From Bacilli bacterium (GTDB lineage Bacteria > Bacillota_I > Bacilli_A > RF39 > UBA660): a DNA stretch of 64,000 bases. The position numbers and the translations under genes are program-made. The stretch lies in contig JBJEED010000091.1 of NCBI GenBank assembly GCA_051872765.1, positions 17,878 through 81,877 on the forward strand. The letters are read 5' to 3'. Below the pieces are notes generated by a model. The model worked only from the letters and a program-made list of their open reading frames with translations, did not search any database and was not told the origin of the DNA. Position 1 is the stretch's first letter. Every line of letters starts with the position of its first letter. Positions 24,069 to 40,649 of this stretch are shown here, piece by piece.

Positions 24069-24626
24069 GTGAAGGAATATATAAGAACAAAAATATTTCA
24101 AACTGTTCAAACAATTGTCGTTATAGTGATTGTTTTTTTTACTTTTACAACTTCATCTATTGATACAACTAGTTTAGCTGTTGCATTTAATTTTAACTTA
24201 TCTAATTATGTAGATAAAGATAAAATTGAGAAAACTCAATTAGAGTTATATAAAGAAGGGCTTTATAATCCATTATTCTCTTTTACCGGAGATTTAACTG
24301 GTTATGTAGGAGACTGTCCATTATGTTCTGGATATCTTGCTTGTCCTCCTAATACAAATGTATTAAAAGAAGGGATATATTATAATGATGCAACATATGG
24401 AAATGTAAGAATAGTTGCTAGTAGTAAAAATTATCCTTGTGGAACTATATTAGAATTTGAAGTTGGAAAAATATCTAACGAACCAATTATAGCAATAGTG
24501 TTAGATAGAGGTGTTGGTGGTAATGATATAGACTTATTAACGGATTCACAAGATTATGCAATTAAAACAATAGGGAGAGTAAAAAATCAGGAATTTAAAG
24601 TACTTAGAGAAGGATGGAAGAGATGA
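24069..24626 (+). CDS. YabE-like membrane-anchored 3D-domain protein (GTG start)
   Basis: N-terminal TM; C-terminal 3D domain with conserved Asp residues (GNVRIVASS...LDRGVGGNDIDLLT); lies between tatD and ksgA as yabE does in Bacillus. Confidence 0.7.
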   Translation: MKEYIRTKIFQTVQTIVVIVIVFFTFTTSSIDTTSLAVAFNFNLSNYVDKDKIEKTQLELYKEGLYNPLFSFTGDLTGYVGDCPLCSGYLACPPNTNVLKEGIYYNDATYGNVRIVASSKNYPCGTILEFEVGKISNEPIIAIVLDRGVGGNDIDLLTDSQDYAIKTIGRVKNQEFKVLREGWKR

Positions 24627-25402
24627 AGAGTTTTAATTATAAAAAATCATTAGGACAAAATTTCTTAAAAGATAAAAATATTATTAAAAAAATATCTGAT
24701 AATATTAATCCTAATGAGAATGATTTAATTGTTGAAATTGGTCCAGGAGCAGGTGCATTAACGAAAGAACTTGTAAAAAAGGATTGTGATATCATATGTT
24801 TTGAAATAGATGAACGTTTAAAAGAAATATTAGAATCAATTGATTCAGATAGAATTAATATATTCTTTAAAGATTTTTTGAAAGTAAATTTAAGTGAATA
24901 TGTAGATACAAAAAAATACAATCATATTTATTTTGTAGGAAACTTACCTTATTATATAACAACGGCAATTATAAATAAGATAATTAGTGAATCTGATCCT
25001 TATGAAATAATTATAATGGTTCAAAAAGAAGTAGGAGAAAGATTTTCTTCAAGTCCAAATTCAAAAAACTATAACTCATTGTCAGTTTTCTTACAATATA
25101 ATTTTGATATAAAAAAAATAGTAAATGTTCCTAAGCAAAGTTTTACACCGGTACCTAAAGTAGATAGCATGGTTATAAAATTAAAAAAGAATAAAAAGTA
25201 TATAGTTAATGATGAAGAATATTTTTATAAATTTGTAAAGGATGCATTTACTCAAAAAAGAAAAAATTTAAGAAATAATCTCAAGAATTATGATTTAAAT
25301 AAGCTGGATATTATATTAAAATCTATTGGTAAAGATTTATCATATAGAGCAGAGGCTATATCTGTTGATGAGTTTGTTAAAATAGTAAATGAATTGAAAT
25401 AA
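24614..25402 (+). CDS. rsmA: 16S rRNA (adenine1518/1519-N6) dimethyltransferase
   Basis: GQNFL, EIGPGAG SAM motif, NLPY. Confidence 0.9.
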   Translation: MEEMKSFNYKKSLGQNFLKDKNIIKKISDNINPNENDLIVEIGPGAGALTKELVKKDCDIICFEIDERLKEILESIDSDRINIFFKDFLKVNLSEYVDTKKYNHIYFVGNLPYYITTAIINKIISESDPYEIIIMVQKEVGERFSSSPNSKNYNSLSVFLQYNFDIKKIVNVPKQSFTPVPKVDSMVIKLKKNKKYIVNDEEYFYKFVKDAFTQKRKNLRNNLKNYDLNKLDIILKSIGKDLSYRAEAISVDEFVKIVNELK

Positions 25403-25527
25403 ATCAATTCTTTTTTTATGTAAATGCATAAAAAATCTAATAATAAAAAAGTAAATGATTTTAAAATTCAATATTGTATTTTAATTTAAAATTTTGTATA
25501 CTAATATAGAGAATACTATAAAGGGAA

Positions 25528-27423
25528 GTGGTTTATGTGATAGACTCATATTTTGCAAGTATTGGATTTACATTAAGTGGTTTATTATTTATGCTTACAG
25601 TATTTGTAATGTTTGTATCAAAAAAGAAAGAAAATAATGAAGAAAGTCGAATATTTTTTTATCTATTAATAATTACAATATTACTATTATTTTTAGAGTT
25701 TGCAACTAGTTATACAATTTCCAAAATAGATGAGTTAACATTATTAAATACTATTTTAGGCAGATTATATATCGTTCTTATATATCTTTGGGCAGGAGGA
25801 TTTTTATTATATATTACAACCTTACTACTTAATAATGAAGAAAAATATAAAAATAAAAATAAGAAAAAGTTTTTTACTATTTATATAATCGTATCTATTA
25901 TTGTAGCAATTCTTATGTCTATTATATTTAAAGTAGAGTATTCTAATGGTATGAATGGAACACCTTATGTTATAGGTGGAACAGCTATCACTATATTAAA
26001 TATATTAATTATTTTTGGAGGATTTTTATTAATAACAATTTTATCAAGTTATAAAAATATTATAAAGAATATTTGGATGACTCCTATTTATATAATAATA
26101 TTGGCTTTTATATTGATTACTTTACTTCAAACATTCTTTAATTATCAAATAAATGATACAGTATTATTTTTCTCGCTAATAATTGAAACTTTATATTTTA
26201 CAATTGAAAGTCAAGATAATAAATTATTAGAAGAATATAAAAAATCAAAAGAAGATGCAGAAATAGCTAATAAAGCAAAAACAGAGTTTTTGATTAATAT
26301 GTCACATGAAATCAGAACCCCAATGAATACAATTTTAGGATTTAGTGAATCTTTATTAAAAGATCCTGTACTTGTTGAAGAGACAGTTAAGAATGATTTA
26401 AAAAGTATTAATTCTGCAAGTTCAACTTTAATGGACTTAATTAACAATATATTAGATATATCAAGACTTGAAGCTGGTGAAGAAGTATTAAATGATTCTG
26501 AGTATAATTTAGAGACATTAATATTTGAAATTAATAGTTTAATTCCAGCAAAGATAGAAAAAGAAGAATTAAAATTTACTATTGAAATTAATGAAAGTAT
26601 ACCTAAAGGTTATTATGGTGATGCTTACAAATTAATTAAGATTTTATGCTATGTATTAAGAAATGCAATTGATTATACCAATTATGGAGAAATTAAACTT
26701 AATGTTGATGGTAAAAAAGTAGATGCACAAAACTTTGAATTTTGTTTCTTAGTTTCAAATACAGGTCATGCAATGACTCAAGAAAGTTTCAATATGGATT
26801 TTGCGGATTATGTAAAAATTGAAAATGCATCACAAAAAAATAATGTAAAAACTATTAATCTTGGGTTAATTATAGCAAAACAATTAACTGAGTTAATGGG
26901 CGGTGAAATTGAATTTGTTAATGAAAGAGGACATGGAACTAGATACTTTATTAGAATAAAGCAAAAAATAACTAATGAAGAAAAAATAGGAAATATATTT
27001 GAAAGTAATGCTGGACATGTTTCTAGTAGTAGAGATATATTAAATTGTGAAGGTAAGAAAGTTTTAATAGTTGATGATAGTGAAATAAATTTAAAACTAG
27101 CATCAAGGTATATGAGTCAATTTAATTTTACTGTTACTACTGCGACAAATGGAAAAGATTGTGTTGAATATATTAAAAATAATAATTATGATATAGTATT
27201 TATAGATCATATGATGCCAGATATGGATGGTGTTCAAACTGTTAAAGCTATGGAAGCAACTGGTAAAAAATTGCCACCAATAATTGCTCTAACAGCAAAT
27301 GGATATAAAGGTCTAAAAGAAAGATTTGTTTCAGAAGGTTTCACAGATTATCTTCAAAAACCACTTAATTTTAGAGATTTAAATAAATTAATCAATAGAA
27401 TATTTGGTCAAAATGGTAATTAG
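25528..27423 (+). CDS. Orphan hybrid sensor histidine kinase (polytopic N-term, HisKA, HATPase_c, C-terminal receiver)
   Basis: H-box [16 protein letters not shown]-box GLGLIIAKQ, receiver [12 protein letters not shown]...[14 protein letters not shown]. Confidence 0.8.
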
Positions 27424-27441
27424 GAAGGGAGTGAAATTAAG

Positions 27442-29283
27442 ATGACATTTGAATTAATATTAACTGAAGGTACAGTTGCATTTATACTATTATTATTAAT
27501 GATGTATTTTAAAAAACAAACCTTCAAAAACTTAAAGACATTTATGTTTAAATTATTATTAATATTTAGTTTATCCTTTTCTGCTTTTGAAATAATATCT
27601 GTATTATTGTTAGATGTAATAGATTCTAATTTAATAAATACTATTATATGGAAATTTCACTTTGTGATTAGCATGTTATTTAATTTAGTATTCTGCTATT
27701 ACATATTAAGTGCTTTATCTGAAGAAGAGAAAAAATCTTTTAAAGAACTTTTTACAGCTAGTTTAATATCTAAAATTGTATCTGTAATAATATTTATTAT
27801 CATAATAGGATATATTGTTTTGCCAATAGATAATATAAATCCAGAAACATTAAATTTTATTCCAAACTATAGTATATATTTTTATATAGCATGTGTATTA
27901 ATCGCATTAATTGTAACAATGATTACTTTGTCAAAAACAAAGAAAAAGATTTCTAAAAATAAAAAGCCTTATTATATTTATGCTACTATTATTCCTTTAG
28001 TTTTTATACCATTGCAAATAATATTTACTCAGGTTTCATTTTTACCTTTTGCATTAATATTACAATTATATGATTTATATTTCTTCATTGAAAATCCAGA
28101 TTTAGAAATCTTAGAAGAAATAACAACAGCACAAGGAGATATTGAACAATCTAATCAAACAAAAACAGATTTCTTATCTAATATGACATCTGAAATAAAA
28201 GTTCCAATGAATCTAATTGTTAGTTTATGTGATGAATTGACTAGTATGCCAGTATTTAATGAGAAACTTGTTAGAGAAGATATTTCACAAATATATACAT
28301 CAGGTAATAGTTTATTAGACATAGTAAATAATATATTAGATATATCTAAAATTGAAACAGGTAAAGGAACGCTTCAAGAAAGAGATTATAAAGTTAATAA
28401 TTTGTTAACTGATGTAATTAATATTGCTAAATCAAAAATTGGTGCTAAACAAGTAAAATTAATGGTCAATGTTGATCAAAATATATCATCTGTATTAAAT
28501 GGTGACTATTCTAAACTTTATCAGGCTTTGACAAATATAGTCACAAATGCTGCTAAATTCACGGATGTTGGTAAAATTACTTTTACATTAACTAGTACAA
28601 AAGCATCAAATGTCGAGAATCTATTATTTAAAATCAGTGATACTGGTTCAGGTATTAAAGAAGAAGAACAGGCAATGTTATTTCAAAAAGGTGTTAGACT
28701 TGCAAATGCTAAGCAAAGTGAGATTGAAGGTAGTGGTTTAGGACTAGCTATAACAAAAGAATATATTGAACTTTTGGGTGGTAAAATATGGTTTGATAGT
28801 CAATACAGAGTTGGTACTACTTTTTATATTGAAGTTCCACAAAAAATAGTTGATTCAACACCAGTAGGTGCAGCAAAAGAGAAAAAACAAACTACTGAAA
28901 AGCTTGATTGTTCTAAGTATACAGTGCTTATTGTAGATGATAATAACTTAAATATTAAAGTTGCAAAAAGACTTCTTGAAACTTACAAGTTTAAAGTTGA
29001 AAGTGTTACTTCTGGTAAAGATTGTGTTTATAAAATAAAGGAAGGAACACATTACGATGCAATATTCATGGATCATATGATGCCTGAGATGGATGGTATT
29101 GAAACATTACATGTACTTAAGAAATTAAATGGTTATGAATTACCTCCTATTATTGCATTAACTGCAAATGCAGTTGCAGGTATGAGAGAAATGTATCTAA
29201 GTGAAGGGTTTGATGAATATTTATCAAAACCAATAAATACTACTGACTTAGATAGAATAATTAATGAATTATTTAACAAATAA
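27442..29283 (+). CDS. Second orphan hybrid sensor histidine kinase, paralogous to the upstream gene
   Basis: Same architecture; receiver VLIVDDNNLNIKVA...AIFMDHMMPEMDG. Confidence 0.8.
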   Translation: MTFELILTEGTVAFILLLLMMYFKKQTFKNLKTFMFKLLLIFSLSFSAFEIISVLLLDVIDSNLINTIIWKFHFVISMLFNLVFCYYILSALSEEEKKSFKELFTASLISKIVSVIIFIIIIGYIVLPIDNINPETLNFIPNYSIYFYIACVLIALIVTMITLSKTKKKISKNKKPYYIYATIIPLVFIPLQIIFTQVSFLPFALILQLYDLYFFIENPDLEILEEITTAQGDIEQSNQTKTDFLSNMTSEIKVPMNLIVSLCDELTSMPVFNEKLVREDISQIYTSGNSLLDIVNNILDISKIETGKGTLQERDYKVNNLLTDVINIAKSKIGAKQVKLMVNVDQNISSVLNGDYSKLYQALTNIVTNAAKFTDVGKITFTLTSTKASNVENLLFKISDTGSGIKEEEQAMLFQKGVRLANAKQSEIEGSGLGLAITKEYIELLGGKIWFDSQYRVGTTFYIEVPQKIVDSTPVGAAKEKKQTTEKLDCSKYTVLIVDDNNLNIKVAKRLLETYKFKVESVTSGKDCVYKIKEGTHYDAIFMDHMMPEMDGIETLHVLKKLNGYELPPIIALTANAVAGMREMYLSEGFDEYLSKPINTTDLDRIINELFNK

Positions 29284-29285
29284 TA

Positions 29286-29330
29286 TATACCTTTAGAGTA
29301 TTAAATTATACTTTAAAGGTATTTTTATTT
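29286..29330 (+). terminator. Rho-independent terminator after the histidine-kinase pair
   Basis: ATACCTTTAGAGTAT / ATACTTTAAAGGTAT stem followed by a T-run. Confidence 0.55.
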
Positions 29331-29392
29331 ATTAATTACGATATTTAAAATAATTATAGTATTATTTTAAATTTTGATAAATATATTTTAAT

Positions 29393-30142
29393 ATGAATAG
29401 TAAATTTAAAGTTGGTGACTATGTCACAAGAAAAAAATATAATAATGATATCGTATTCAAAATTAAAAGCATAAATAGAGATGTGATTATTTTAAGTGGC
29501 GTAGATGTTAGATTATATGCAGATGCATATGCTAATGATTTAGTATTAACATCAATTAGTAAAAAAAAAGAAGAGATAAGCACACTTAGAAGTTTAGATG
29601 TGGATAAATATTTTTATATTCCTGGTAAAGTACTTCATATAGATGCAGATAAGAATTATTTGGAAAAATGTAAAGAATATTATGAAACACAAAAAGTAAA
29701 GTATTATGGTTATATATTTAAAGAAAAAGATTTTAAAGAAAAAGTAAATAATCTTATTCAAAAACATAAGCCTGAAATTGTTGTTATAACTGGTCATGAT
29801 GCATATTATAAAAATAATAAATATAAGAATAGTAAATATTTTATTGATGCTGTTAAACAAATTCGAGATAAATATCCAAATGTAATTATAATAGCGGGAG
29901 CTTGTCAAAGTGATTATGAGGGACTTATAAAAGCAGGTTCAACATTCGCATCAAGTCCATCACATATTAATATTCATGCTTTAGATCCAGCTATAATTGC
30001 TTCATATATAGCACTAACTAGTAAAGATAAAACTATTGATTTAATAGAAATGTTATCAAAGACAAAGTATGGTAGTGAGGGAATAGGTGGATTTGTGATT
30101 AATGGTACTATGAAGATGGGATATCCAAGAAAAAAGGAATAA
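29393..30142 (+). CDS. yabG: Sporulation-specific protease YabG
   Basis: N-terminus MNSKFKVGDYVTRKKYNNDIVFKIKSI resembles YabG; yabG-veg order. Confidence 0.8.
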   Translation: MNSKFKVGDYVTRKKYNNDIVFKIKSINRDVIILSGVDVRLYADAYANDLVLTSISKKKEEISTLRSLDVDKYFYIPGKVLHIDADKNYLEKCKEYYETQKVKYYGYIFKEKDFKEKVNNLIQKHKPEIVVITGHDAYYKNNKYKNSKYFIDAVKQIRDKYPNVIIIAGACQSDYEGLIKAGSTFASSPSHINIHALDPAIIASYIALTSKDKTIDLIEMLSKTKYGSEGIGGFVINGTMKMGYPRKKE

Positions 30143-30180
30143 AATAATAAAAAAATAATATTCTTAAATAAGGTGATAAA

Positions 30181-30396
30181 TTGAATATTGAACAAATAAA
30201 AAATAAGTTAAAAAATTTTGGTAAATCTAAAATTAAAATAAAAGTAAATCTAGGTCGTAATAAGTATGAGTATTATGAGGGATATATAAATAAGATGCAT
30301 CCTAATATTTTTGTTGTTGAAACTAATAAAGGAATAAAATCTTTTTCTTATTCTGATGTAGTTATTAAAAATGTAATATTAACTAAATTTAATTAA
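30181..30396 (+). CDS. veg: Veg (biofilm-stimulating small protein), TTG start
   Basis: 71 aa; NLGRNKYEYYEGYINKMHPNIFVVE...FSYSDVV matches the Veg consensus. Confidence 0.85.
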   Translation: MNIEQIKNKLKNFGKSKIKIKVNLGRNKYEYYEGYINKMHPNIFVVETNKGIKSFSYSDVVIKNVILTKFN

Positions 30397-30668
30397 AATC
30401 AGTTTAAGATATTATTTACTTTATATATAAATATAATGTATTAATATTTGTATGCTTAGAAATAAAACTTAAAATAATAGTAAAACTAATTAGTAATTGT
30501 TGTTAATAATCTTATAATTATTTTTATATTGTCTTTGATTAATAAGATAAAAAATGCTTAAACTTCAATATTTAAATCGTTGACTGCTGATATATTATGA
30601 TGTATAATTTATGTATAGTAGTCTATATTTATAAGTTATTATAAATTTAAATAGAAAGGATCGAAGAA

Positions 30669-31232
30669 ATGAAAAAGCAAAGAAACACACAAATGCTGGT
30701 TATTGCAGTCTTAGCAATTGCGGTATTGACAATGTCAGTAGGTTTTGCGGCATTTACTCAAAGATTAGATATTAATAGTAATACTACAGTTGGTGTGTCA
30801 ACTTGGAATGTTAAATTTTTAACTGATAGTTTCACAGTAACTGATGGAAGCGTTAATGTAGATAGTGGTAACATAGTAATTACAGGTACATCTGTCACAT
30901 ATGAGGTTAAGTTATCTAAGCCTGGAGATTTTTATGAATTTACTATTAATGTTAAAAATTCAGGTACATTTAATGCTAACTTAGTTGGAATTACTTTAAG
31001 TTCTTTAACTGAGGCACAATCTAAATATTTAACTCACAAATTAACATATGATGGTGTAGAGTATACTCAAACAACATCTGGATTATCAAAAACATTAAAT
31101 GCAACTGATGGTGTTGCTAGTGTTAAAGTTCGTGTGGAATATGTTGCACCAGAAGATCCAAATGATTTACCACAGGAAGAAGTTCGTATACCTTTAACTG
31201 CATCTCTTTCATATGAACAAAAACCTGATTAG
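30669..31232 (+). CDS. TasA/camelysin-like secreted protein with SipW-cognate signal peptide
   Basis: N-terminus ...LTMSVGFAAFTQ matches the SipW-cognate class (TasA ...GGGTWAAFND); KLSKPGDFYEFTINVKNSG parallels TasA NLKPGD...FQFENNGS. A TTGACT-17-TATAAT promoter lies at about 30580-30608. Confidence 0.6.
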   Translation: MKKQRNTQMLVIAVLAIAVLTMSVGFAAFTQRLDINSNTTVGVSTWNVKFLTDSFTVTDGSVNVDSGNIVITGTSVTYEVKLSKPGDFYEFTINVKNSGTFNANLVGITLSSLTEAQSKYLTHKLTYDGVEYTQTTSGLSKTLNATDGVASVKVRVEYVAPEDPNDLPQEEVRIPLTASLSYEQKPD

Positions 31233-31286
31233 AATAATTTATAAAAATTATGTTTGTTAAATTGATAAATAACAAATATATAATTA

Positions 31287-32414
31287 GTGGGTAAAAATAT
31301 GAAAAAAAATATATTGACATTTTATATATGTAATATAATAATTATAGCCTTAATTGTATTATTTAATAATAAGAATTATAGTATTCTATTATGGATTTTA
31401 TTAACTATCTTTTTATTTTTTAAGTGTGGTTTTCCTAAAGATAAAAATTATTTAAAATATAATACAATTCAAATTGTAATAATTAGTATATTCTCATATT
31501 TTTTAATTACTTATAGTCTTGGTTTAATTACGGGATTTAGTAAAAATTTTTTTGATTTAAATATTAAATCGATTATTATGAATATGCTATATCCTTTTAC
31601 TTTGATTACTTGTCAAGAACTTATTCGATATATTTATGCTAAAAATTGTGTAGATGATATAAAGCCATATATTATGCTTACTTTAGTATATATTTTTTTA
31701 GAAATTTTTACTCAAGTTAATGGATATAATTTTTACAATTTTGAAATATTGTTTAAGTTTATATGTTTAGTAGTATTAAAAAGTATTTCTCATGAAATTC
31801 TATATAGTTATATTACTTATAAGATTAGTTTTATACCTACATTAATTATGAAACTAACATTTGGTTTATATATATACATTATACCTATATTTCCAAATTT
31901 AGGAGAATATTTAATGTCTCTTTTTGGAATATTATATCCGGCTTTGGTTTATGTAATGATATATAAAACTATTCAATCTTATGATAAAAGTAGTAAATAT
32001 GTGACTTCAATAAAGAAAAAATATTTGCTATATCCTGTAATTTTATTTTTATGCATAATTGCAGTACTTACATCAGGTATTGGAAAATATCAAATGATTG
32101 CAATTGGATCTGGTAGTATGGAACCAATATATAAGCGTGGTGATGCGGTAATCTTTACTAAGATAAAATCACTTGAAGAAGTGAAAATTGGTTCCATTAT
32201 AGCATTTACTAAAAATAATATACTAATAACACACAGAGTGGTAAATATTGAATATAAAAATGGTGATTATCAATTTATCACAAAAGGGGATAATAATAAA
32301 GATATTGACATTGGAACTGTTAGTGGCAGTAATGTTAAAGGAATTGTGATACATAAGATTCCTTATATTGGATATCCAACAATATGGATTAATGAAAAAC
32401 TAGGTAATATATAA
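31287..32414 (+). CDS. sipW: SipW-type (ER/archaeal-type) signal peptidase I fused to an approximately 250-aa N-terminal polytopic membrane domain
   Basis: C-terminal catalytic domain has IGSGSMEP (catalytic Ser), ITHRV (His) and KGDNN. The N-terminal half has about 7 predicted TM helices. Confidence 0.7.
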   Translation: MGKNMKKNILTFYICNIIIIALIVLFNNKNYSILLWILLTIFLFFKCGFPKDKNYLKYNTIQIVIISIFSYFLITYSLGLITGFSKNFFDLNIKSIIMNMLYPFTLITCQELIRYIYAKNCVDDIKPYIMLTLVYIFLEIFTQVNGYNFYNFEILFKFICLVVLKSISHEILYSYITYKISFIPTLIMKLTFGLYIYIIPIFPNLGEYLMSLFGILYPALVYVMIYKTIQSYDKSSKYVTSIKKKYLLYPVILFLCIIAVLTSGIGKYQMIAIGSGSMEPIYKRGDAVIFTKIKSLEEVKIGSIIAFTKNNILITHRVVNIEYKNGDYQFITKGDNNKDIDIGTVSGSNVKGIVIHKIPYIGYPTIWINEKLGNI

Positions 32415-32436
32415 AAAGAATAAGTGTGGTGATAAT

Positions 32437-33522
32437 ATGAAAAATGATGATAATTCTTTGTTTATGAGAAAAATTTATTATTTACTCATTGTTTTTTCAA
32501 TTATCATTTTAAGTATATGCTCTTATTTTTATATAAGAATGGGATTAGATAATAAGGTAAAAAATGTTTTAGATTACGAAAGTAGTAGTGATATAAATTA
32601 TAAAGTATATTTAAAGAAAAATAACTTTTTTAATGAAGAATATTTAACTATGAATAAAACTTATATTGCAAGTTTAATTGATCATTTAGATGTTATTTTT
32701 ACATATAATCTTAAATATAGTGAACTTGTATCTGGAAAGTATAATTATTATGTAAAAGCTACTATTTTAGCTGATAAAGATGCATCTAGTAATACAAATT
32801 ATTGGTCTAAATCTTATATTTTAACAGAACCAGAAACTATTGAATTTAGTAAAATTAATAATTATAATATCACCACTAGCGTAATAGTTGATTATCAGAA
32901 ATATAGTGATTTGCTTAAAGAATTTAGAAAAGAATATGGATTATCTATCACTGGTTTATTAAAATTAGAACTTATTGTTGAAAGTGAGACAAAAAGTGAG
33001 TCTATTGAAAATGTTGCTAATATAAATTCTTCTTCTGAATTAACTATTCCTCTTACTGAGCAAGCAATTGAATTATCTATTAATGCTGAAAATGATAGTA
33101 ATTCTGGAAGCATAGTAGAAGAGGTTGTATTAGATAATATTAAATATAAAATATTTTTAGTGCTTGGTACTATTTTAGGAATTTTAGCAATCATATTACT
33201 TGGAATATTTATTTACGAATTAATAATGTTATATCAAAGTAAAAGTAAATATTCGATAGAACTTAAAAAAATAATGTCTTCATATGATAGTATAATTGTA
33301 AATGTTAGTAGTATGCCTAATTTTACTAAATATAAAGTTATTAACGTACTTTCATTTGATGAGTTAATTGATGCTCATAGTGAAGTAAGAATGCCAATTA
33401 ATTATTATGAAGAGAAGCCTGGATGTAAAAGTGTTTTTGTACTTATTAATGGTGATATTGTCTGGATGTATACATTGTTAGATGAAAATTATAGAAAAAG
33501 AATTTTAAAAAAGAAGTCATAA
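32437..33522 (+). CDS. Hypothetical bitopic membrane protein in the matrix operon
   Basis: TM at the N-terminus and near residue 235; no family recognised. Confidence 0.45.
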   Translation: MKNDDNSLFMRKIYYLLIVFSIIILSICSYFYIRMGLDNKVKNVLDYESSSDINYKVYLKKNNFFNEEYLTMNKTYIASLIDHLDVIFTYNLKYSELVSGKYNYYVKATILADKDASSNTNYWSKSYILTEPETIEFSKINNYNITTSVIVDYQKYSDLLKEFRKEYGLSITGLLKLELIVESETKSESIENVANINSSSELTIPLTEQAIELSINAENDSNSGSIVEEVVLDNIKYKIFLVLGTILGILAIILLGIFIYELIMLYQSKSKYSIELKKIMSSYDSIIVNVSSMPNFTKYKVINVLSFDELIDAHSEVRMPINYYEEKPGCKSVFVLINGDIVWMYTLLDENYRKRILKKKS

Positions 33523-33560
33523 TTATTTATAATATAATAGAAAAGGAAAAGGAAAATCAA

Positions 33561-35900
33561 ATGTTAAAAAATCGAAATGTTATTATATATATATTTGTTT
33601 TACTAATTATTTCTTTTATGAGTGTAGGGTATGCATACTATGGACAATTGCTAGAGTTTTCTGGAAATATTAATTTAAAGCCAGATGGTAAATTTCGTAT
33701 AGATAATATAATACTTACGGATACTTCTAATGTTATAAGTAGTGTTCCACCAATTATTACAGATAATACAATTGAGTTTAATATAAGCTTTGGTGGTACT
33801 GAAAATGAGTATTATGCAATATATACAGCTGACTTCATAAATGAAAGTAGCTATAGTTATACATATAATTCTTTTAATTTTACGCCAATTGTTACCGCGA
33901 GTGGTGATGGAAGTGGACAATTATCTTTTGAAGTTAGTAATATTAATGATGGAGATGTAATTTCTCCTGGAGAGATTTTAACGATTACGTTAAAATTGAT
34001 TTTAGATGTAAGTGATTCTGAACAAACATATGATATAAATGCCAAGAGTGATGTTATATTGAATTATAATGAAAAAGGTTCTATTTTTACTAGTGTATCA
34101 CCATTATCTGTAGATTTAACTGGTACTAATGAATTAGCTTTAATTAATTTAGAGGTTATGAACACATATGGTAGAAATATTACTTTTAATATGAAATCTA
34201 GTAATAATAATTTTTCTTTAGTAAATAGTGATGGAACAGATTTAGGAAGTTTTACTATTTTAGCAAATAGTGTAGATGATTATCAAATATATTTGAAAAA
34301 GACAGATAATAGCGTGTTTTATGATTCTTCTGAGACTACAATATTAATATTACAATGTGGTACTTTAGGAAACTATAATACTAGTAAGATAACAGTTTCT
34401 GTTGATAAGTCAGAGTTAAGTGATACTAGTATTCCTGAAATTGGTGAAATTAGTTTTACTATAAATAATAATGAAGGACAGGCTGATCTTAATTGGAGTA
34501 GATTAGATAGTGGGGGCACTAGTATTATTGGTTATACAATATTACTTTATAATTCTACGAATGATACCTTAGTAAATACTTATAATACTAATAGTGACTT
34601 GACAAGTTATAGTATTACAGGTCTTGAAGAAGGAAGTTATTATGTTAAAATATATGGAACAGATCAAGCTGGAAATAATGGAAGTGGATATGTAAATGAT
34701 GCTACAACTAGTACAATTTATTGTCGTCAATCTTCTACTGTTGCTTTAAAATGGATATTTAATGTTACTAATAATTTAACTTATTTGACTTCTTCAGGTG
34801 CTAGTACTGCTTCATTAGGAAGTACATATACTGCAACATTATCGGTTTCAGGAAATGTAAGTTTGCCAACTTCTATTACAGTTACTATGAATGGTGTTAC
34901 ACTAGTAAATGGTACAGATTATACATATAGTAGTAGTACAGGACAAATATCTATTCCTAATGTAAATGGAGATATTACCATTACAGCTAGAGGAAGTGGC
35001 GTATGTTTAATTGAAGGAACAAAGATTAGTTTAGCTGATGGAAGTACTAAAAACATTGAAAATATAAGATATGATGATTTACTTCTTGTTTGGAGTTATG
35101 AAGAGGGGCGTATGGTATATGAATATCCTATTTGGATAGAAAAAGAACATAAAGCGCAATCTTATCAATTAACAAAATTCTCATCAGGAGATGAGTTAAA
35201 AACAATAGGATATCATGGCATATATAATATGGACCTTAATAGATTTGTTTCAGTTGATAATAGAGAAGAATTTGATGTTGGTACTAATGTTGCTATTATG
35301 AATGATGATAAAACAGGTTTTATATCTACTAGTGTAGTTAGTATAGAATATGTGTATGAAGAAGTAAATTATTATCATGTGGTTTCAACTAGATATTATA
35401 ATATAATTGCTAATAATATTTTAACAACTGATGGAACAGTAATATTATCTAATTTATATGGATTTGATGATAACATTATGTGGTTAAATAGAAATCAAGT
35501 AATTAATGATAAAAATAATCTTTATGATTATATAGAATTTAATGATATAATGCCATATTATATGTTTTCTGGCCTTAGAGCTAGTGAAGGTAAGTATTTA
35601 GCTAATTTAGGTTTTTTGAGTAAAGAAACATTTAAATATTATTTACTTCAAAATCAAATGAATAAAGAAATGTTGTTACCGCCAACTGTAAATAAAAATG
35701 GTATAAGACAATGGGTTGTAAAAACAAGTTTAGGATATGAAAGATTAATAGATGAGGGAAGTTATTTTTATTTAGATAATTCAAATACTTTAGGTAAAAA
35801 GATTTTATATTGGTATGATATGTCTACAGGAGTAAAATACAAACCTAATGAAAGAGTTAAAATATGGTATGGTACTTATTTTGAGGCTATATATGAATAA
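33561..35900 (+). CDS. Large secreted protein: SipW-cognate signal/TasA-like N-terminus, Fn3 domain, internal Hint (intein-like) domain
   Basis: N-terminus ...FMSVGYAYYGQ...NLKPDG; Fn3-like LNWSRLDSGGTSIIGYTILLYN...YYVKIYGTD; Hint block A CLIEGTKISLADGSTKNIENI...DLLLV at residue 482 and block F-like YYNIIANNILTTDG (about nt 35004-35435). Confidence 0.6.
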   Translation: MLKNRNVIIYIFVLLIISFMSVGYAYYGQLLEFSGNINLKPDGKFRIDNIILTDTSNVISSVPPIITDNTIEFNISFGGTENEYYAIYTADFINESSYSYTYNSFNFTPIVTASGDGSGQLSFEVSNINDGDVISPGEILTITLKLILDVSDSEQTYDINAKSDVILNYNEKGSIFTSVSPLSVDLTGTNELALINLEVMNTYGRNITFNMKSSNNNFSLVNSDGTDLGSFTILANSVDDYQIYLKKTDNSVFYDSSETTILILQCGTLGNYNTSKITVSVDKSELSDTSIPEIGEISFTINNNEGQADLNWSRLDSGGTSIIGYTILLYNSTNDTLVNTYNTNSDLTSYSITGLEEGSYYVKIYGTDQAGNNGSGYVNDATTSTIYCRQSSTVALKWIFNVTNNLTYLTSSGASTASLGSTYTATLSVSGNVSLPTSITVTMNGVTLVNGTDYTYSSSTGQISIPNVNGDITITARGSGVCLIEGTKISLADGSTKNIENIRYDDLLLVWSYEEGRMVYEYPIWIEKEHKAQSYQLTKFSSGDELKTIGYHGIYNMDLNRFVSVDNREEFDVGTNVAIMNDDKTGFISTSVVSIEYVYEEVNYYHVVSTRYYNIIANNILTTDGTVILSNLYGFDDNIMWLNRNQVINDKNNLYDYIEFNDIMPYYMFSGLRASEGKYLANLGFLSKETFKYYLLQNQMNKEMLLPPTVNKNGIRQWVVKTSLGYERLIDEGSYFYLDNSNTLGKKILYWYDMSTGVKYKPNERVKIWYGTYFEAIYE

Positions 35901-36034
35901 AAAGAGTATAAAAGTATTATATTCTATTGTGATTTAATCTAATAAAAAGTCTTATATTAATTAAATTTAATTAAAAATATTGATATTGAAAAATATTTGT
36001 ATTATAATTAATATAGCAAATTAAGGAGGTACTT

Positions 36035-36313
36035 ATGAAAATTACATCAGTAAAAATTCGTAAAGTTGAGAGAGAAGGATCTCGTATGAAAGGTATTGCT
36101 TCTGTAGTAGTTGATGATGCAATTGCTATTCATGATATTAGAATTATTGAAGGCGATAATGGATTATTTATTGCTATGCCTAGTCGTAAAACACCAGTAG
36201 GTGAATATAAGGATATAGCTCATCCAATTAACCAAGAAGTAAGAACTATGTTTGAAAAAGAAATACTTGATGCATATAACAAATCAGACGAAGTTCAAGA
36301 AAACGAGGAATAA
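36035..36313 (+). CDS. spoVG: Septation protein SpoVG
   Basis: MKITSVKIRKVEREGSRMKGIASVVVDDAIAIHDIRIIEG is canonical SpoVG. Confidence 0.92.
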   Translation: MKITSVKIRKVEREGSRMKGIASVVVDDAIAIHDIRIIEGDNGLFIAMPSRKTPVGEYKDIAHPINQEVRTMFEKEILDAYNKSDEVQENEE

Positions 36314-36364
36314 TAAAAATATATATAGACTAATAATAATGAGTTTATAAGTTGTTTTTAATAT

Positions 36365-36401
36365 AGAATTGTATTTTAATATAAAACAATTCTTTTTTTA
36401 T
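36365..36401 (+). terminator. Rho-independent terminator after spoVG
   Basis: AGAATTGT / ACAATTCT stem plus T7. Confidence 0.5.
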
Positions 36402-36447
36402 GTAGTCTTTTTTTAAAAATATTTCATATTTTTAATTAGGAGGAAAT

Positions 36448-36732
36448 ATGGAAAATAAAACAGATGATTCATATAATCATATAATTAATATTACTGATAG
36501 AAAGGCAATATCATTATCAGGTATAAAAAAAATAAATAATTTTGATGATACAGAATTTTTTGTTGATACTATTATGGGACAGTTGATTATTAAAGGTGAA
36601 AATTTAGAATTATTAAAAATGGATACTTTTCAGGGTAATTTAACTATTAAAGGAAAAATAGTACTAATAAATTATTTAGAAGATAGTAAAAAATTTAAAG
36701 CTGATAATATTATGGCAAGGTTATTTAAATGA
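36448..36732 (+). CDS. yabP: Sporulation protein YabP
   Basis: 94 aa; the ITDRKAISLSGIKKINNFDD...LIIKGENLEL pattern is typical of YabP; followed by yabQ. Confidence 0.8.
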   Translation: MENKTDDSYNHIINITDRKAISLSGIKKINNFDDTEFFVDTIMGQLIIKGENLELLKMDTFQGNLTIKGKIVLINYLEDSKKFKADNIMARLFK

Positions 36733-36992
36733 TTAGTCTTAAAGAACAAATAATATCATTTGTTTTTTCATTTGTATATGGATTTATAATTTATTTTTTT
36801 TATAAAAAAAGTTATAAATATTTATATCATTCAAAAAAAATATATTGTATTTTAAATTCATTTTTATTTATTATAGATGTAATATTAATATATTTTAAAA
36901 TATTTTATTTTATTAGTGATGGTTATATAAGTATATATTTTATATTGATAACACTTATTGTTTTTCTATGTTTAAATAAAAAGTATAATTAA
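36729..36992 (+). CDS. yabQ: Spore cortex biosynthesis membrane protein YabQ
   Basis: Small multi-TM protein translationally coupled to yabP. Confidence 0.6.
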   Translation: MISLKEQIISFVFSFVYGFIIYFFYKKSYKYLYHSKKIYCILNSFLFIIDVILIYFKIFYFISDGYISIYFILITLIVFLCLNKKYN

Positions 36993-37082
36993 TTTTTTAC
37001 ATTATTTAATGTAAATATTTGTCGTTTTGCTTGTTAATAGGTATTAATAAGAATATAATTATATTATGGGAATATAAGGGTT

Positions 37083-37382
37083 GTGGATAATATGAATAAA
37101 ATAGGACAAAAAACAAAATTTAGAGTGACTTTTTTATTACTTGGTCTTATAATATCAAGTGTGTTTTTTGTATCCCAGTTTTTTTCTTATATTACTCAAA
37201 TTATGAAAACTAAACAAGAAATATATGATTTAGAACTTACATACAATGATAAACTTCATGAAGAAGAAGTATTAAATGATGAAATAAGTAAATTGGAAGA
37301 TCCTGAGTATTTGGCAAAATATGCTCGCGAAAAATATTTGTATTCGAAAAAAGATGAGATTATTATTAAAATTGAAGAATAA
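37083..37382 (+). CDS. divIC: Septum formation initiator DivIC/FtsB family
   Basis: N-terminal TM, coiled coil, C-terminal LEDPEYLAKYAREKYLY motif; yabQ-divIC order. Confidence 0.7.
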   Translation: MDNMNKIGQKTKFRVTFLLLGLIISSVFFVSQFFSYITQIMKTKQEIYDLELTYNDKLHEEEVLNDEISKLEDPEYLAKYAREKYLYSKKDEIIIKIEE

Positions 37383-37397
37383 TTAGAAAGGCTTGAT

Positions 37398-38723
37398 ATG
37401 GAAGAAGTATATGATTATATAAGAACTAAGATTGGTTTAATGCCTAATGATACAGTTGTGATTGGTGTATCTGGGGGGCCAGATTCAATGGCTCTTTTAC
37501 ATATTATGAAAGAATTTAAGAAGACATTTGGACTAAGAATAGTGTGTGCACATGTAAATCATAATGTAAGAATCGAAAGTGAGCAAGAAAGAATTGATTT
37601 AGAAAACTATTGTAAAATAAATAATATTATTTTTGAATATATTAAGATAGATAAATGGTCTATGGATAATTTTCATAATGAAGCAAGAACAATTAGATAT
37701 AATTTTTTTGAAGAATTAATTGAAAATTATGGAGCAAAATTTTTAATGACAGCTCATCATGGTGATGATTTAATTGAGACTATATTAATGAGAATAGTTA
37801 GAGGTTCTACATTAAAGGGATATAGTGGTTTTAGTAGAATTGTTAATAAAAATAATTATAAAATAGTAAGGCCACTATTAACATTAACTAAAGATGAAAT
37901 ATTAGATTTCGTTATTAAAAATAATATTAAATTTGCAATAGATAGTTCAAATAATGAAGATCATTATACTAGAAACAGATATAGGCATGTTGTTTTACCA
38001 TTTTTAAAAAATGAAGAAGCTAATGTTCATAAGAAATTTTTAAAATTTAGTGAAACATTATTGGAAAGTAGCAATTACATTGATATAGAAACTGATAAAG
38101 TTATAAATAAAGTATTTCAAAATGGACAATTAAATTTGAATAAATTTTTAGAATTAAATCATGTGATTCAAACTAAAATAATCTATAATATATTAGAAAA
38201 AATATATGGTGATGATTTATTGATTATTGGCGATGTACATGTAGAATTAATATTTAATTTAATTAAATCTAAAAAATCAAATAGTTGTGTATATCTTCCA
38301 AATGGTGTAGTAGTAATAAAGTCTTATAATGAAATTAGTTTTGACTATATTGACAATGAATATGAAGATTATTGTTATAAAATTGATAATTTAGTAAATT
38401 TACCTAATGGTAAAATAATTGAAGTAGTATCTTCAAGTAATGATACTACAAATAATACGATTAGATTAAATAGCAAAGATATAAAATTACCTTTATATGT
38501 GAGAAATAGACATAATGGTGATAAAATGGTAGTGAAAGGTTTAAATGGCTCTAAGAAAATAAATGATATATTTATTGATGAAAAAATAAAAAAATCATTA
38601 AGAGATATATGGCCAATTGTGTTAGATAATGAAGACAATGTTGTATGGTTACCTGGTCTAAAAAAATCTAGCCTTGACAAGGAAATAACAGAAGAGTATG
38701 ATATTATATTGAGATATTATTAG
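37398..38723 (+). CDS. tilS: tRNA(Ile)-lysidine synthetase
   Basis: PP-loop GVSGGPDSMALLH; about 440 aa; upstream of ftsH. Confidence 0.9.
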   Translation: MEEVYDYIRTKIGLMPNDTVVIGVSGGPDSMALLHIMKEFKKTFGLRIVCAHVNHNVRIESEQERIDLENYCKINNIIFEYIKIDKWSMDNFHNEARTIRYNFFEELIENYGAKFLMTAHHGDDLIETILMRIVRGSTLKGYSGFSRIVNKNNYKIVRPLLTLTKDEILDFVIKNNIKFAIDSSNNEDHYTRNRYRHVVLPFLKNEEANVHKKFLKFSETLLESSNYIDIETDKVINKVFQNGQLNLNKFLELNHVIQTKIIYNILEKIYGDDLLIIGDVHVELIFNLIKSKKSNSCVYLPNGVVVIKSYNEISFDYIDNEYEDYCYKIDNLVNLPNGKIIEVVSSSNDTTNNTIRLNSKDIKLPLYVRNRHNGDKMVVKGLNGSKKINDIFIDEKIKKSLRDIWPIVLDNEDNVVWLPGLKKSSLDKEITEEYDIILRYY

Positions 38724-38738
38724 AGAAAGGAAAACGCA

Positions 38739-40649
38739 ATGAATATTAAAAAAACAAAAAATAGTATGAATTTTATGCCATATATATTATTGGCAATGGT
38801 AGTAATAGGATCTTATTTATTTTTAAACACAATGGGTACAAAAATAAATGAGTTAAATTATACTGAATTAACTACACAAATAAATGAGGGAAATGTTACT
38901 GAAATATCAGTCACACCAAAAAGCGCATCAGGAGTATATATTATTACTGGTAAACTTGAAGGTTATGGGAAAGGAGAAACTTTTAGTGTTACTGTACCAT
39001 ACACTGACACAGTTATATCTTCTTTATATGAAGCAGCTGACAATAAAAATTTAACAATAAAGACAAATACTAATCCAGAAAATAGTACTTGGTTAAATGT
39101 ATTAATTAATGTTGTGCCAATTGTTATATTTGGAATATTAATATATATAATGTTTGTTAAACTTGGAAATAATGGTAAGAGTTCTTTTGATTTTGGAAAG
39201 AGTAGAGCTAAATTAGCTGAAGAGGGAGGAACTAAAACATTTAAAGATGTTGCTGGTTTAAAAGAAGAAAAGGAAGAAGTTCAGGAGTTAATTGATTTTC
39301 TTAAAAATCCAAAGAAATTTACTAAAATGGGAGCAAGAATTCCAAAAGGAGTTTTATTGGTTGGTCCTCCTGGTACAGGTAAAACATTATTAGCTAAAGC
39401 TGTTGCAGGTGAAGCAAAAGTACCATTCTTTTATATTAGTGGTTCTGATTTTGTAGAATTATTTGTAGGTGTTGGTGCTAGTCGTGTAAGAGATATGTTT
39501 AAACAAGCAAAACAAACAGCACCTTGTTTAATATTTATAGATGAAATAGATGCTGTAGGTCGTCAAAGAGGTACTGGGCTTGGCGGAGGTCATGATGAAA
39601 GAGAACAAACTTTAAATCAACTTTTAACCGAAATGGATGGATTTGGAGAGAATGAGGGTATTATCATTATGGCAGCAACGAATAGACCTGATGTATTAGA
39701 TCCTGCTTTATTAAGACCTGGAAGATTTGATAGACAAGTTACTGTAAGTAGACCAGATGTCAAAGAAAGAGAAGAAATATTAAAAGTTCATGCTAAAAAT
39801 AAGATATTAGCAAGTTCTGTTAAATTAAAACATATTGCTGAGAGAACACCTGGCTTTTCAGGAGCAGATTTAGAAAACTTATTAAATGAAGCAGCTTTAT
39901 TAGCAGTTAGACGTAATAAGACTGAAATAACTATGGATGAGATAGATGAAGCAGGAGATAGAGTATTAATGGGTCCTGCTAAAACTAGTAGAAAAGTAAC
40001 AGACTATGAGAAAGAAATAGTGGCATATCATGAAGCAGGTCATGCTGTATCTGGTATAGTTCTTCCAAATGGTGAAGAAGTTCATAAAATAACAATTATT
40101 CCTCGTGGTATGGCAGGTGGATATACACAAATGTTACCAAAAGAGGAAAGAACATTAGTATATACTAAAAAAGAATTAGAAGAGCAAATTATAACATTAT
40201 TATCTGGTCGTGCAAGTGAAGAAACTTATATGAGTGAAATATCAACAGGTGCTAGTGATGACTTAAAAAGAGCAACTAAAATTGCTAGAAGTATGGTTAC
40301 TGAATATGGTATGAGCTCACTTGGTCCAATGCAATTTGAGCATAGAAATGAAAGTGTCTTTTTAGGAAGAGACTACAATCAAACTAAAAATTTCTCAGAT
40401 CAAGTTGCACTACAAATAGATCAAGAAGTTAAAAAAATAATAGATGAATGTTATAGTCAAGCTAAAAAAATAGTTGTTAAAGAGAAAAAACTTATTAAAG
40501 TACTTGCTGATACATTAATTACAAAAGAAACTTTAACTAAAGAAGAGATTGAAGAAATTGTTGAAGCAAATAGTAATTATACTTTTGATAAAGACGAGAA
40601 AGAAGAAAAGACTTCTAAAAAAGAAAAAAAGCAAATTGATGAAGAATAA
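38739..40649 (+). CDS. ftsH: ATP-dependent zinc metalloprotease FtsH
   Basis: Walker [12 protein letters not shown], zinc HEAGH motif. Confidence 0.97.

Follow-up and report, generated by a model that had tools for sequence, protein, structure and literature searches.

Bacterial type I signal peptidases are usually regarded as single-subunit enzymes with one or two membrane anchors, and canonical SipW processes TasA with single anchors. For archaea, it was shown that Haloarcula TafD is required for the processing of the fibre subunit TafA (PMC11821415), and TafG, a DUF5305 protein, was proposed to assist TafD (PMC11821415, PMC12337348). Dedicated signal peptidases and DUF5305 partners recur in fibre loci of the TasA superfamily (PMC11821415, PMC12337348, doi 10.64898/2026.01.04.697558), to which also AbpX belongs, a characterized fibre subunit that polymerizes via donor-strand complementation (PMC12518558; doi 10.64898/2026.01.04.697558). 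The AbpX-linked signal peptidases of bacteria and archaea were treated in one sentence of a January 2026 preprint, as "structurally distinct, possessing ten transmembrane helices", and DUF5305, which is sometimes fused to the peptidase, was read there as an accessory subunit that recalls the signal peptidase complex of eukaryotes (doi 10.64898/2026.01.04.697558). This paper describes a signal peptidase gene of a Bacilli bacterium (RF39, UBA660), located on a stretch of 64,000 nucleotides (nt) of contig JBJEED010000091.1 (assembly GCA_051872765.1, positions 17,878 to 81,877 of the forward strand), which in its full length is called the window in the following. The gene product is a new bacterial example of the polytopic AbpX-locus peptidases, in which a peptidase domain of the endoplasmic reticulum (ER)/archaeal type is fused to an N-terminal membrane module of eight helices. 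We lean, if only just, towards the reading that it is the dedicated signal peptidase of a donor-strand fibre operon of the TasA/AbpX type, with the module acting as a docking subunit.

The open reading frame (ORF) of the peptidase extends from position 31287 to 32414 on the plus strand, opens with GTG, codes for 375 amino acids (aa) and is unbroken within the window; all residue numbers given here follow this GTG numbering. Since the homologues, as well as an identical protein at NCBI (P0001, 371 aa, named signal peptidase I, Bacilli bacterium), begin with MKK, translation probably starts from the ATG at position 31299, which would result in a protein of 371 aa. The initial annotation of the gene had described a C-terminal catalytic domain with the motifs SGSMEP, THRV and GDNN, fused to a polytopic N-terminal part. 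This was borne out, since residues 248-373 matched TIGR02228 (sigpep_I_arch) with an E value of 4.4e-26 (91.6 bits, compared to a cut-off of 51.85), and Ser277 (SGSMEP), His316 (THRV), Asp335 (GDNN) and Asp341 were found to be invariant in 35 homologues, at identities down to 36%. By these sequence features the enzyme falls into TIGR02228 and S26B and is predicted to be a peptidase of the Ser-His(-Asp) kind, not of the Ser-Lys kind.

A structural model was built with AlphaFold2 (AF2) on the alignment of the 35 homologues, with a mean predicted local distance difference test (pLDDT) of 88. In a Foldseek search of this model against the PDB, the best match was human SEC11A (7p2p_A, E 6.1e-7, 34% identity), with a template modelling score (TM-score) of 0.62 normalized to the target. 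Human SEC11A and SEC11C are the closest solved relatives and were ranked above the bacterial Ser-Lys peptidases. The match to TIGR02228 stops at position 138 of the 158 positions of the family model, and the protein ends two residues further on, from which it follows that the C-terminal anchor is absent, as the initial annotation had also stated. A short C-terminal helix is predicted at residues 363-371.

For the N-terminal module, seven helices had been counted at first. The AF2 model showed eight, at residues 9-25, 29-47, 57-82, 93-120, 126-144, 152-179, 182-198 and 206-229, in agreement with hydropathy, so that together with the peptidase anchor the protein contains nine transmembrane (TM) helices. 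Over the 35 homologues, about 9.8 lysine and arginine residues are present in the predicted cytoplasmic segments versus about 2.6 in the external loops, and the linker at residues 230-245 contains 5.3 on average. Because of this distribution, the sequences fit a topology in which the N-terminus and the linker are inside and the catalytic domain is outside the cell. Invariant residues of the module in the same alignment are G79, G83, E111, R114, P203 and Y208. E111 and R114 form an E-x-x-R pair within TM4 toward the cytoplasmic side, and two short strands (residues 84-86 and 201-203), which bear the conserved motifs GLxxGF and PIxPNLGxY, are placed at the outer face in the model.

No match to Pfam or NCBIfam was obtained for the module, neither with the window protein alone nor with 29 members scanned singly; a profile of the 29 members gave no recurrent match in PDB sequences, Foldseek identified no partner for the module in the PDB, and a profile search in a word-index database returned the same family alone. 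A bile-acid symporter, the best match among the PDB sequences (E 0.08), was dismissed as a chance hit. On these searches, the module belongs to no modelled family in Pfam or NCBIfam, in agreement with the polytopic domain of unknown family proposed initially, and since it is absent from both collections, it merits a family model of its own.

Like the protein described here, Bacillus subtilis SipW is a Ser-His peptidase of the ER/archaeal type that is encoded beside fibre subunits of the TasA superfamily. However, SipW has a length of about 190 aa and a single anchor at either terminus, while the window protein comprises 371-375 aa and nine TM helices, eight more in its module, and contains no C-terminal TM helix. 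Its score against the Bacillus SipW equivalog NF046067 was 66.7 bits, below the cut-off of 190. The initial annotation had conceded that its finding would fall if the N-terminal part were simply a known extension of SipW common in Clostridia. This holds in part, since a large family shares the extension and peptidases with ten TM helices were already reported for AbpX loci of bacteria and archaea in the 2026 preprint.

The family is widespread. With the peptidase as query, the word-index search gave 452 matches, and the best 120 of them were almost all full length, with about 370-390 aa; the exceptions were a few entries that were shortened at the 5' end (about 333-338 aa) or truncated. When the module alone was compared to 1.84 billion cluster representatives (50% identity), 472 matches were identified at E <= 1e-3. 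Among the 150 of these that were listed, most consist of 364-397 aa. Shorter forms of 133-338 aa make up about 30 of the listed matches, and four exceed the usual length, with 401, 409, 463 and 812 aa. The peptidase is carried by 51 GTDB species genomes, all of them uncultured metagenome-assembled genomes from gut, rumen or faeces with labels such as Bacilli, Tenericutes, Erysipelotrichaceae or similar.

In essentially every locus, and thereby in about 50 genomes, the peptidase gene is part of the same cassette of four genes, coding in this order for an AbpX/TasA-like subunit of ~187 aa, the peptidase, a DUF5305 protein and a subunit of ~780 aa with a Hint end. The gene for the small subunit was identified upstream of the peptidase in 49 of the 51 loci, the DUF5305 gene in 50 of the 51 and the gene for the large subunit in most. 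The intergenic gaps in the cassette range from 22 to 66 nt, and no terminator-like site was found on the plus strand from 30669 to 35900.

Both flanking subunits share the motif MSVG[FY]A in their signal peptides (window 30669-30749 and 33561-33641), and in both a sequence resembling a donor strand comes next. In the 64-kb window this motif is present in only two ORFs, namely the two genes which flank the peptidase and DUF5305 genes, and in the large subunit it is conserved across loci. The N-terminus of the small-subunit family reads MSVGFA/A(Y/F)(S/T)QTLNINGT (the slash marks the predicted cleavage site), with 5 of 8 invariant columns within the signal peptide and a mean pairwise identity of 55% in the h/c-region of the signal versus 40% in the mature part. 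Ordinary signal peptides are less conserved than the mature protein. The cleavage context of TasA, TWA/AF, is similar to the GFA/AF present here. Residues 1-82 of the large subunit also matched the 187-aa subunit in BLASTP (E 6e-6). Because the peptidase is always placed between two proteins sharing the conserved MSVG[FY]A signal, a link to substrate recognition is plausible, as the initial annotation had supposed. Nothing indicates the polymer export that it had offered besides, the signals of both subunits being ordinary N-terminal ones of the Sec type.

For the small subunit, a comparison of its family to the AbpX family of Pyrodictium abyssi by hhalign gave a probability of 84.6% (E 6.9e-6, 144 columns), and the alignment brought predicted sites of cleavage, donor strands and the motif PGd..f.v.N.GT.pA into register. 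Plain BLASTP of the small subunit against AbpX was not significant. DUF11 was matched by 15 of 35 family members. From these comparisons, the assignment of the 187-aa neighbour as a fibre subunit of the AbpX/TasA type is moderately supported, not proven.

Closest in architecture is the P. abyssi enzyme WP_338249487.1 (doi 10.64898/2026.01.04.697558; PMC12518558), which comprises 380 aa, compared to 371-375 aa here, and also consists of a polytopic module followed by a TIGR02228-type domain with the sequence A[IV]GSGSMEP. Nine hydrophobic segments are colinear in both proteins, and in both cases the gene lies beside one for an AbpX-like subunit. Over the catalytic domains, the identity amounts to 41% (E 1e-20). 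In a global alignment of the modules, eight of ten conserved positions were in register (G79, G83, F84, E111, R114, S174, P200 and P203), nearly all local BLAST matches between the two modules fell on one diagonal, and the local hhalign score with a profile of 292 sequences was 19.15, compared to a block-shuffle null of 11.4 +/- 1.8 with a maximum of 18.9. The two differ in that the identity of the modules is only about 20%, that the window protein lacks the hydrophobic segment found at the end of the archaeal enzyme, and that the archaeal locus is minimal, without DUF5305 or a large subunit nearby. A metagenome scan seeded with the P. abyssi enzyme added 60 further loci, nearly all of the same low-GC (guanine plus cytosine) gut family, and found no bridging sequences. 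With nine TM helices, a short C-terminal helix and an adjoining gene for an AbpX-like subunit, the window enzyme conforms to the AbpX-locus peptidases.

By its sequence distribution the module is a separable unit, which is fused in the window protein, encoded by an overlapping separate gene in a second lineage and stands alone in a third. In the second lineage, represented by the contigs L122, L123 and L124, a gene for a 247-aa module overlaps a gene for a 143-aa peptidase by 38 nt, and the DUF5305 gene comes next. This peptidase gene has its own AGGAAG ribosome-binding site, its own ATG and its own anchor helix. The three contigs originate from separate samples, at least three, in which the same organism was assembled, and are 99.7-100% identical in this region; a fourth contig was reported to carry the same protein. 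The upstream subunit in these loci ends in a C-terminal TM helix. In the third lineage, P0203, a homologue of 235 aa, consists of the module alone and retains GxxxGF, ExxR and PxxP. That fused as well as split forms occur argues for the module being a subunit that partners the peptidase rather than a simple extension of it, and the pattern of fused, split and stand-alone forms taken together speaks for a genuine subunit, not for mere decoration.

Irregular forms were also identified. In P0250 and P0146, which are 33% identical to each other, an in-frame TAA is located exactly in the linker between module and anchor (L116 856-858 and L121 1965-1967) and is followed by no canonical start codon, so that readthrough, reinitiation or a pseudogene are possible. 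A reading of TGA as tryptophan (code 4) was discarded as cause of the stand-alone forms, since the in-frame stops are TAA. The broken homologues of L114 and L121, being derived from assemblies of low coverage, counted for little here. In P0245 (812 aa), the module and the start of the peptidase run into a sequence which, judged by eye only, resembles a metallophosphatase/5'-nucleotidase, and this protein is probably a chimeric or frameshifted assembly. On a metagenome contig with 64% GC (L102 304-1962), a protein of 553 aa has its peptidase domain in the N-terminal part (residues 51-125), ahead of a long unassigned remainder; this architecture is a different one, possibly a fusion of peptidase and accessory protein.

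In the mechanism that we propose, both subunits would be exported by Sec. The eight-TM module would be a non-catalytic membrane subunit, and with the two-TM DUF5305 protein it would make up a prokaryotic equivalent of the signal peptidase complex of eukaryotes. Within the membrane, the two would provide the docking site for the conserved signal peptide. E111 and R114 are predicted to lie on the cytoplasmic side, at which the K/R-rich n-region of the signal would also be located. Docking would present G-F-A/A to Ser277, and Ser277 and His316 would cut at a site predicted to lie after G-(F/Y)-A. The freed N-terminus might then serve as the donor strand that drives subunit polymerization through donor-strand complementation, and the large subunit may join via its own donor strand and be processed or anchored by its Hint domain.

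Two described systems are comparable to such an arrangement. In the haloarchaeal TafD/TafG system of Tat-fimbriae, the donor-strand fibre locus also codes for a dedicated signal peptidase together with a DUF5305 partner; however, TafD contains four TM helices, an N-terminal catalytic domain and a second extracellular domain, and its substrates use the Tat pathway. The eukaryotic complex (SEC11, SPC12, SPC25 and SPC22/23; 7p2p) includes the closest solved catalytic domain, surrounded by non-catalytic membrane subunits as is proposed for the cassette, but its accessory parts show no detectable kinship in sequence or fold to those of the cassette, one of which is joined to the catalytic part in a single protein. 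A farther-reaching reading, which is attractive but rather doubtful, is that module, DUF5305 protein and ER-type domain form a true prokaryotic signal peptidase complex, which would read MSVG[FY]A as a dedicated signal peptide and couple its cleavage to donor-strand polymerization at the membrane, after which the Hint domain of the large subunit would attach the fibre covalently to the cell envelope in place of a sortase. If this complex exists, it would represent a new route of fibre assembly, and bacteria and archaea would possess an equivalent of the eukaryotic complex. Should the module read the conserved signal peptide, the specific processing of TasA/AbpX-type fibres would be explained, and a tractable prokaryotic model would be at hand for substrate selection by the accessory subunits of signal peptidase complexes. 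An ER-type peptidase with conserved eight-helix and DUF5305 partners is present in at least 472 clusters, in abundant uncultured Bacilli of gut and rumen and probably in archaea, and the fibres may matter for biofilm formation or adhesion of these uncultured gut bacteria.

Several results weigh against the proposed role as a fibre-specific peptidase with a docking module. First, for the fibre subunit, the single-sequence AF2 model of the 187-aa protein was weak (pLDDT 58.8, all-beta, with 26 disordered N-terminal residues), and Foldseek gave only generic beta-sandwich matches for it, among which AbpA (7ueg_A) ranked 34th (E 0.02). Second, with respect to the archaeal relative, the eight of ten motif matches were also reached by one of 100 shuffles, the hidden Markov model (HMM) score of the P. 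abyssi module was not above that of shuffled sequences, and hhalign of the two modules gave E values of 0.39 with one sequence and 0.052 with the profile of 292 sequences; homology of the modules is considered probable rather than demonstrated from the sequences. Third, the AF2 model of the peptidase has a predicted template modelling score (pTM) of 0.64 and draws TM8, linker and TM9 as a single long helix, and therefore does not fix how module and peptidase pack together. Last, no peptidase was found near P0203 in the roughly 400 nt of downstream contig available on three contigs, and this context hints that the module could have a function of its own.

The third point also bears on the strongest of the other explanations, in which the module is only a membrane anchor, a stabilizer or a localization device and the catalytic domain alone sets specificity. 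It accords with a packing that the model does not fix and with the module showing no catalytic-looking motif besides the one E..R pair, and it is established for SipW that single anchors suffice for the processing of TasA. However, eight helices with invariant residues, kept in at least 472 clusters and probably across domains of life, exceed what anchoring needs, because the peptidase already has an anchor helix of its own; the module even persists as a separate gene beside a self-anchored peptidase, and the signal peptides of the substrates are unusually conserved. We regard an anchoring role alone as unlikely.

Less probable still is a module with enzymatic or transport activity of its own, for example, an intramembrane hydrolase clearing cleaved signal peptides or a modifier or exporter of the subunits, which was fused to the peptidase for reasons of stoichiometry. 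The invariant charged residues E111 and R114 inside TM4 would fit such a function, as would P0203, which stands alone beside Coat_F with no peptidase in the roughly 400 nt of contig that follow. Against it stand the missing matches of the module in Pfam, NCBIfam, PDB sequences and the Foldseek search of the PDB, the Sec-type signals of the substrates, and the lack of invariant His, Cys, Asp or Ser residues in a combination that intramembrane proteases typically have. A CPBP/Abi protease in particular, suggested by the E..R motif, was rejected, since the motifs EExxxR, FxxxH and HxxxN are absent, only E111-x-x-R114 with another spacing is present and PF02517 was not matched.

The initial annotation had drawn an analogy to exosortases and archaeosortases, and the logic is indeed similar, with a polytopic processing enzyme encoded beside proteins that bear a conserved cognate sorting signal. 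As an actual sorting enzyme of this kind, tied to polymer export, the protein is very improbable. No match to Exosortase_EpsH was obtained with the 29 members at E values up to 10, no Cys or His is invariant in the module among the 35 homologues, and the conserved Cys-Arg-His of these enzymes is missing. In addition, exosortases and archaeosortases use Cys transpeptidase chemistry and C-terminal signals (PEP-CTERM or PGF-CTERM), while here a Ser-His peptidase is accompanied by the N-terminal signal MSVG[FY]A, and no polysaccharide or export genes are present in the cassette. The kinship was given up for these reasons. The last explanation, two genes joined through a sequencing frameshift, against which the initial annotation had cautioned, or through misassembly, may be set aside as excluded on the sequences. 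Some homologues from low-coverage assemblies do break at the domain junction, but the fusion recurs at full length in hundreds of homologues that come independently from different samples, and in 51 species genomes, and the frame is uninterrupted in the window.

Table 1. Position of the peptidase parts, of the neighbouring features in the window, and of split and stand-alone module genes on other contigs (a slash within a signal peptide marks the predicted cleavage site)
Feature	Position	Strand	Basis or remark
Promoter-like site TTGACT-17-TATAAT	30580..30608	+	11/12 consensus; consensus match only; upstream of the first cassette gene
Small secreted subunit, 187 aa, AbpX/TasA-like	30669..31232	+	Signal ...LTMSVGFA/AFTQRLDINSNTTVG, then putative N-terminal donor strand
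Eight-TM N-terminal module, residues 5-245	31299..32021	+	AF2 helices, hydropathy, invariant residues
Anchor helix TM9, residues about 246-265 (helix itself 246-263), preceded by K/R-rich cytoplasmic linker 230-245	32022..32081	+	Hydropathy, AF2, K+R counts
Catalytic domain, ER/archaeal-type signal peptidase I, predicted extracellular	32082..32414	+	TIGR02228; invariant Ser277/His316/Asp335; Foldseek SEC11A
DUF5305 protein	32437..33522	+	Pfam PF17231, E 4.8e-17, 62.6 bits vs gathering threshold 29
Large subunit, N-terminal 481 of 779 residues	33561..35003	+	Signal ...FMSVGYA/YYGQLLEFSGNINL, then beta-rich domains
Hint (intein-like) domain from Cys482, then C-terminal extension of about 150 aa	35004..35900	+	Pfam and PDB matches in family
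Split module/peptidase genes	L122 2738-3875; L123 2689-3826; L124 1180-2317
P0203 gene	L118 1982-2689; L119 1693-2400; L120 162-869		Beside Coat_F and Cu_amine_oxidN1 genes

Of the other cassette products, the DUF5305 protein spans the membrane with two TM helices (residues about 7-37 and 235-268), between which its middle part lies outside the cell, while the tail is cytoplasmic. A role of such proteins as accessory subunits of the signal peptidase has been proposed (PMC11821415, PMC12337348, doi 10.64898/2026.01.04.697558), and the same is proposed here.

For the large-subunit family, 20 of 28 members matched Hom_end_hint and 12 of 28 matched Hint (best E 2.1e-6), and the Hint region was related to the PDB entries 6tmm and 6y75 with E values of about 3e-6 (2.7e-6 for 6tmm). 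Cys482 is nearly invariant and His552 invariant in the family, while the large subunit of the window, taken alone, scored below the threshold for Hint. Hint domains cleave or transfer the polypeptide ahead of them. By its sequence relationship, the Hint domain could serve in the release or covalent attachment of the N-terminal part of 481 residues. No LPXTG or SLH protein was identified among the four cassette genes.

The cassette is inserted between veg and spoVG, within the conserved region ksgA-yabG-veg...spoVG-yabP-yabQ-tilS-ftsH (window 24614-40649), and the host is a Firmicute which has retained sporulation genes. Just upstream of the cassette, two tandem genes for hybrid histidine kinase/receiver proteins are located at 25528-27423 and 27442-29283; this tandem pair is conserved only in the closest relative, L001.

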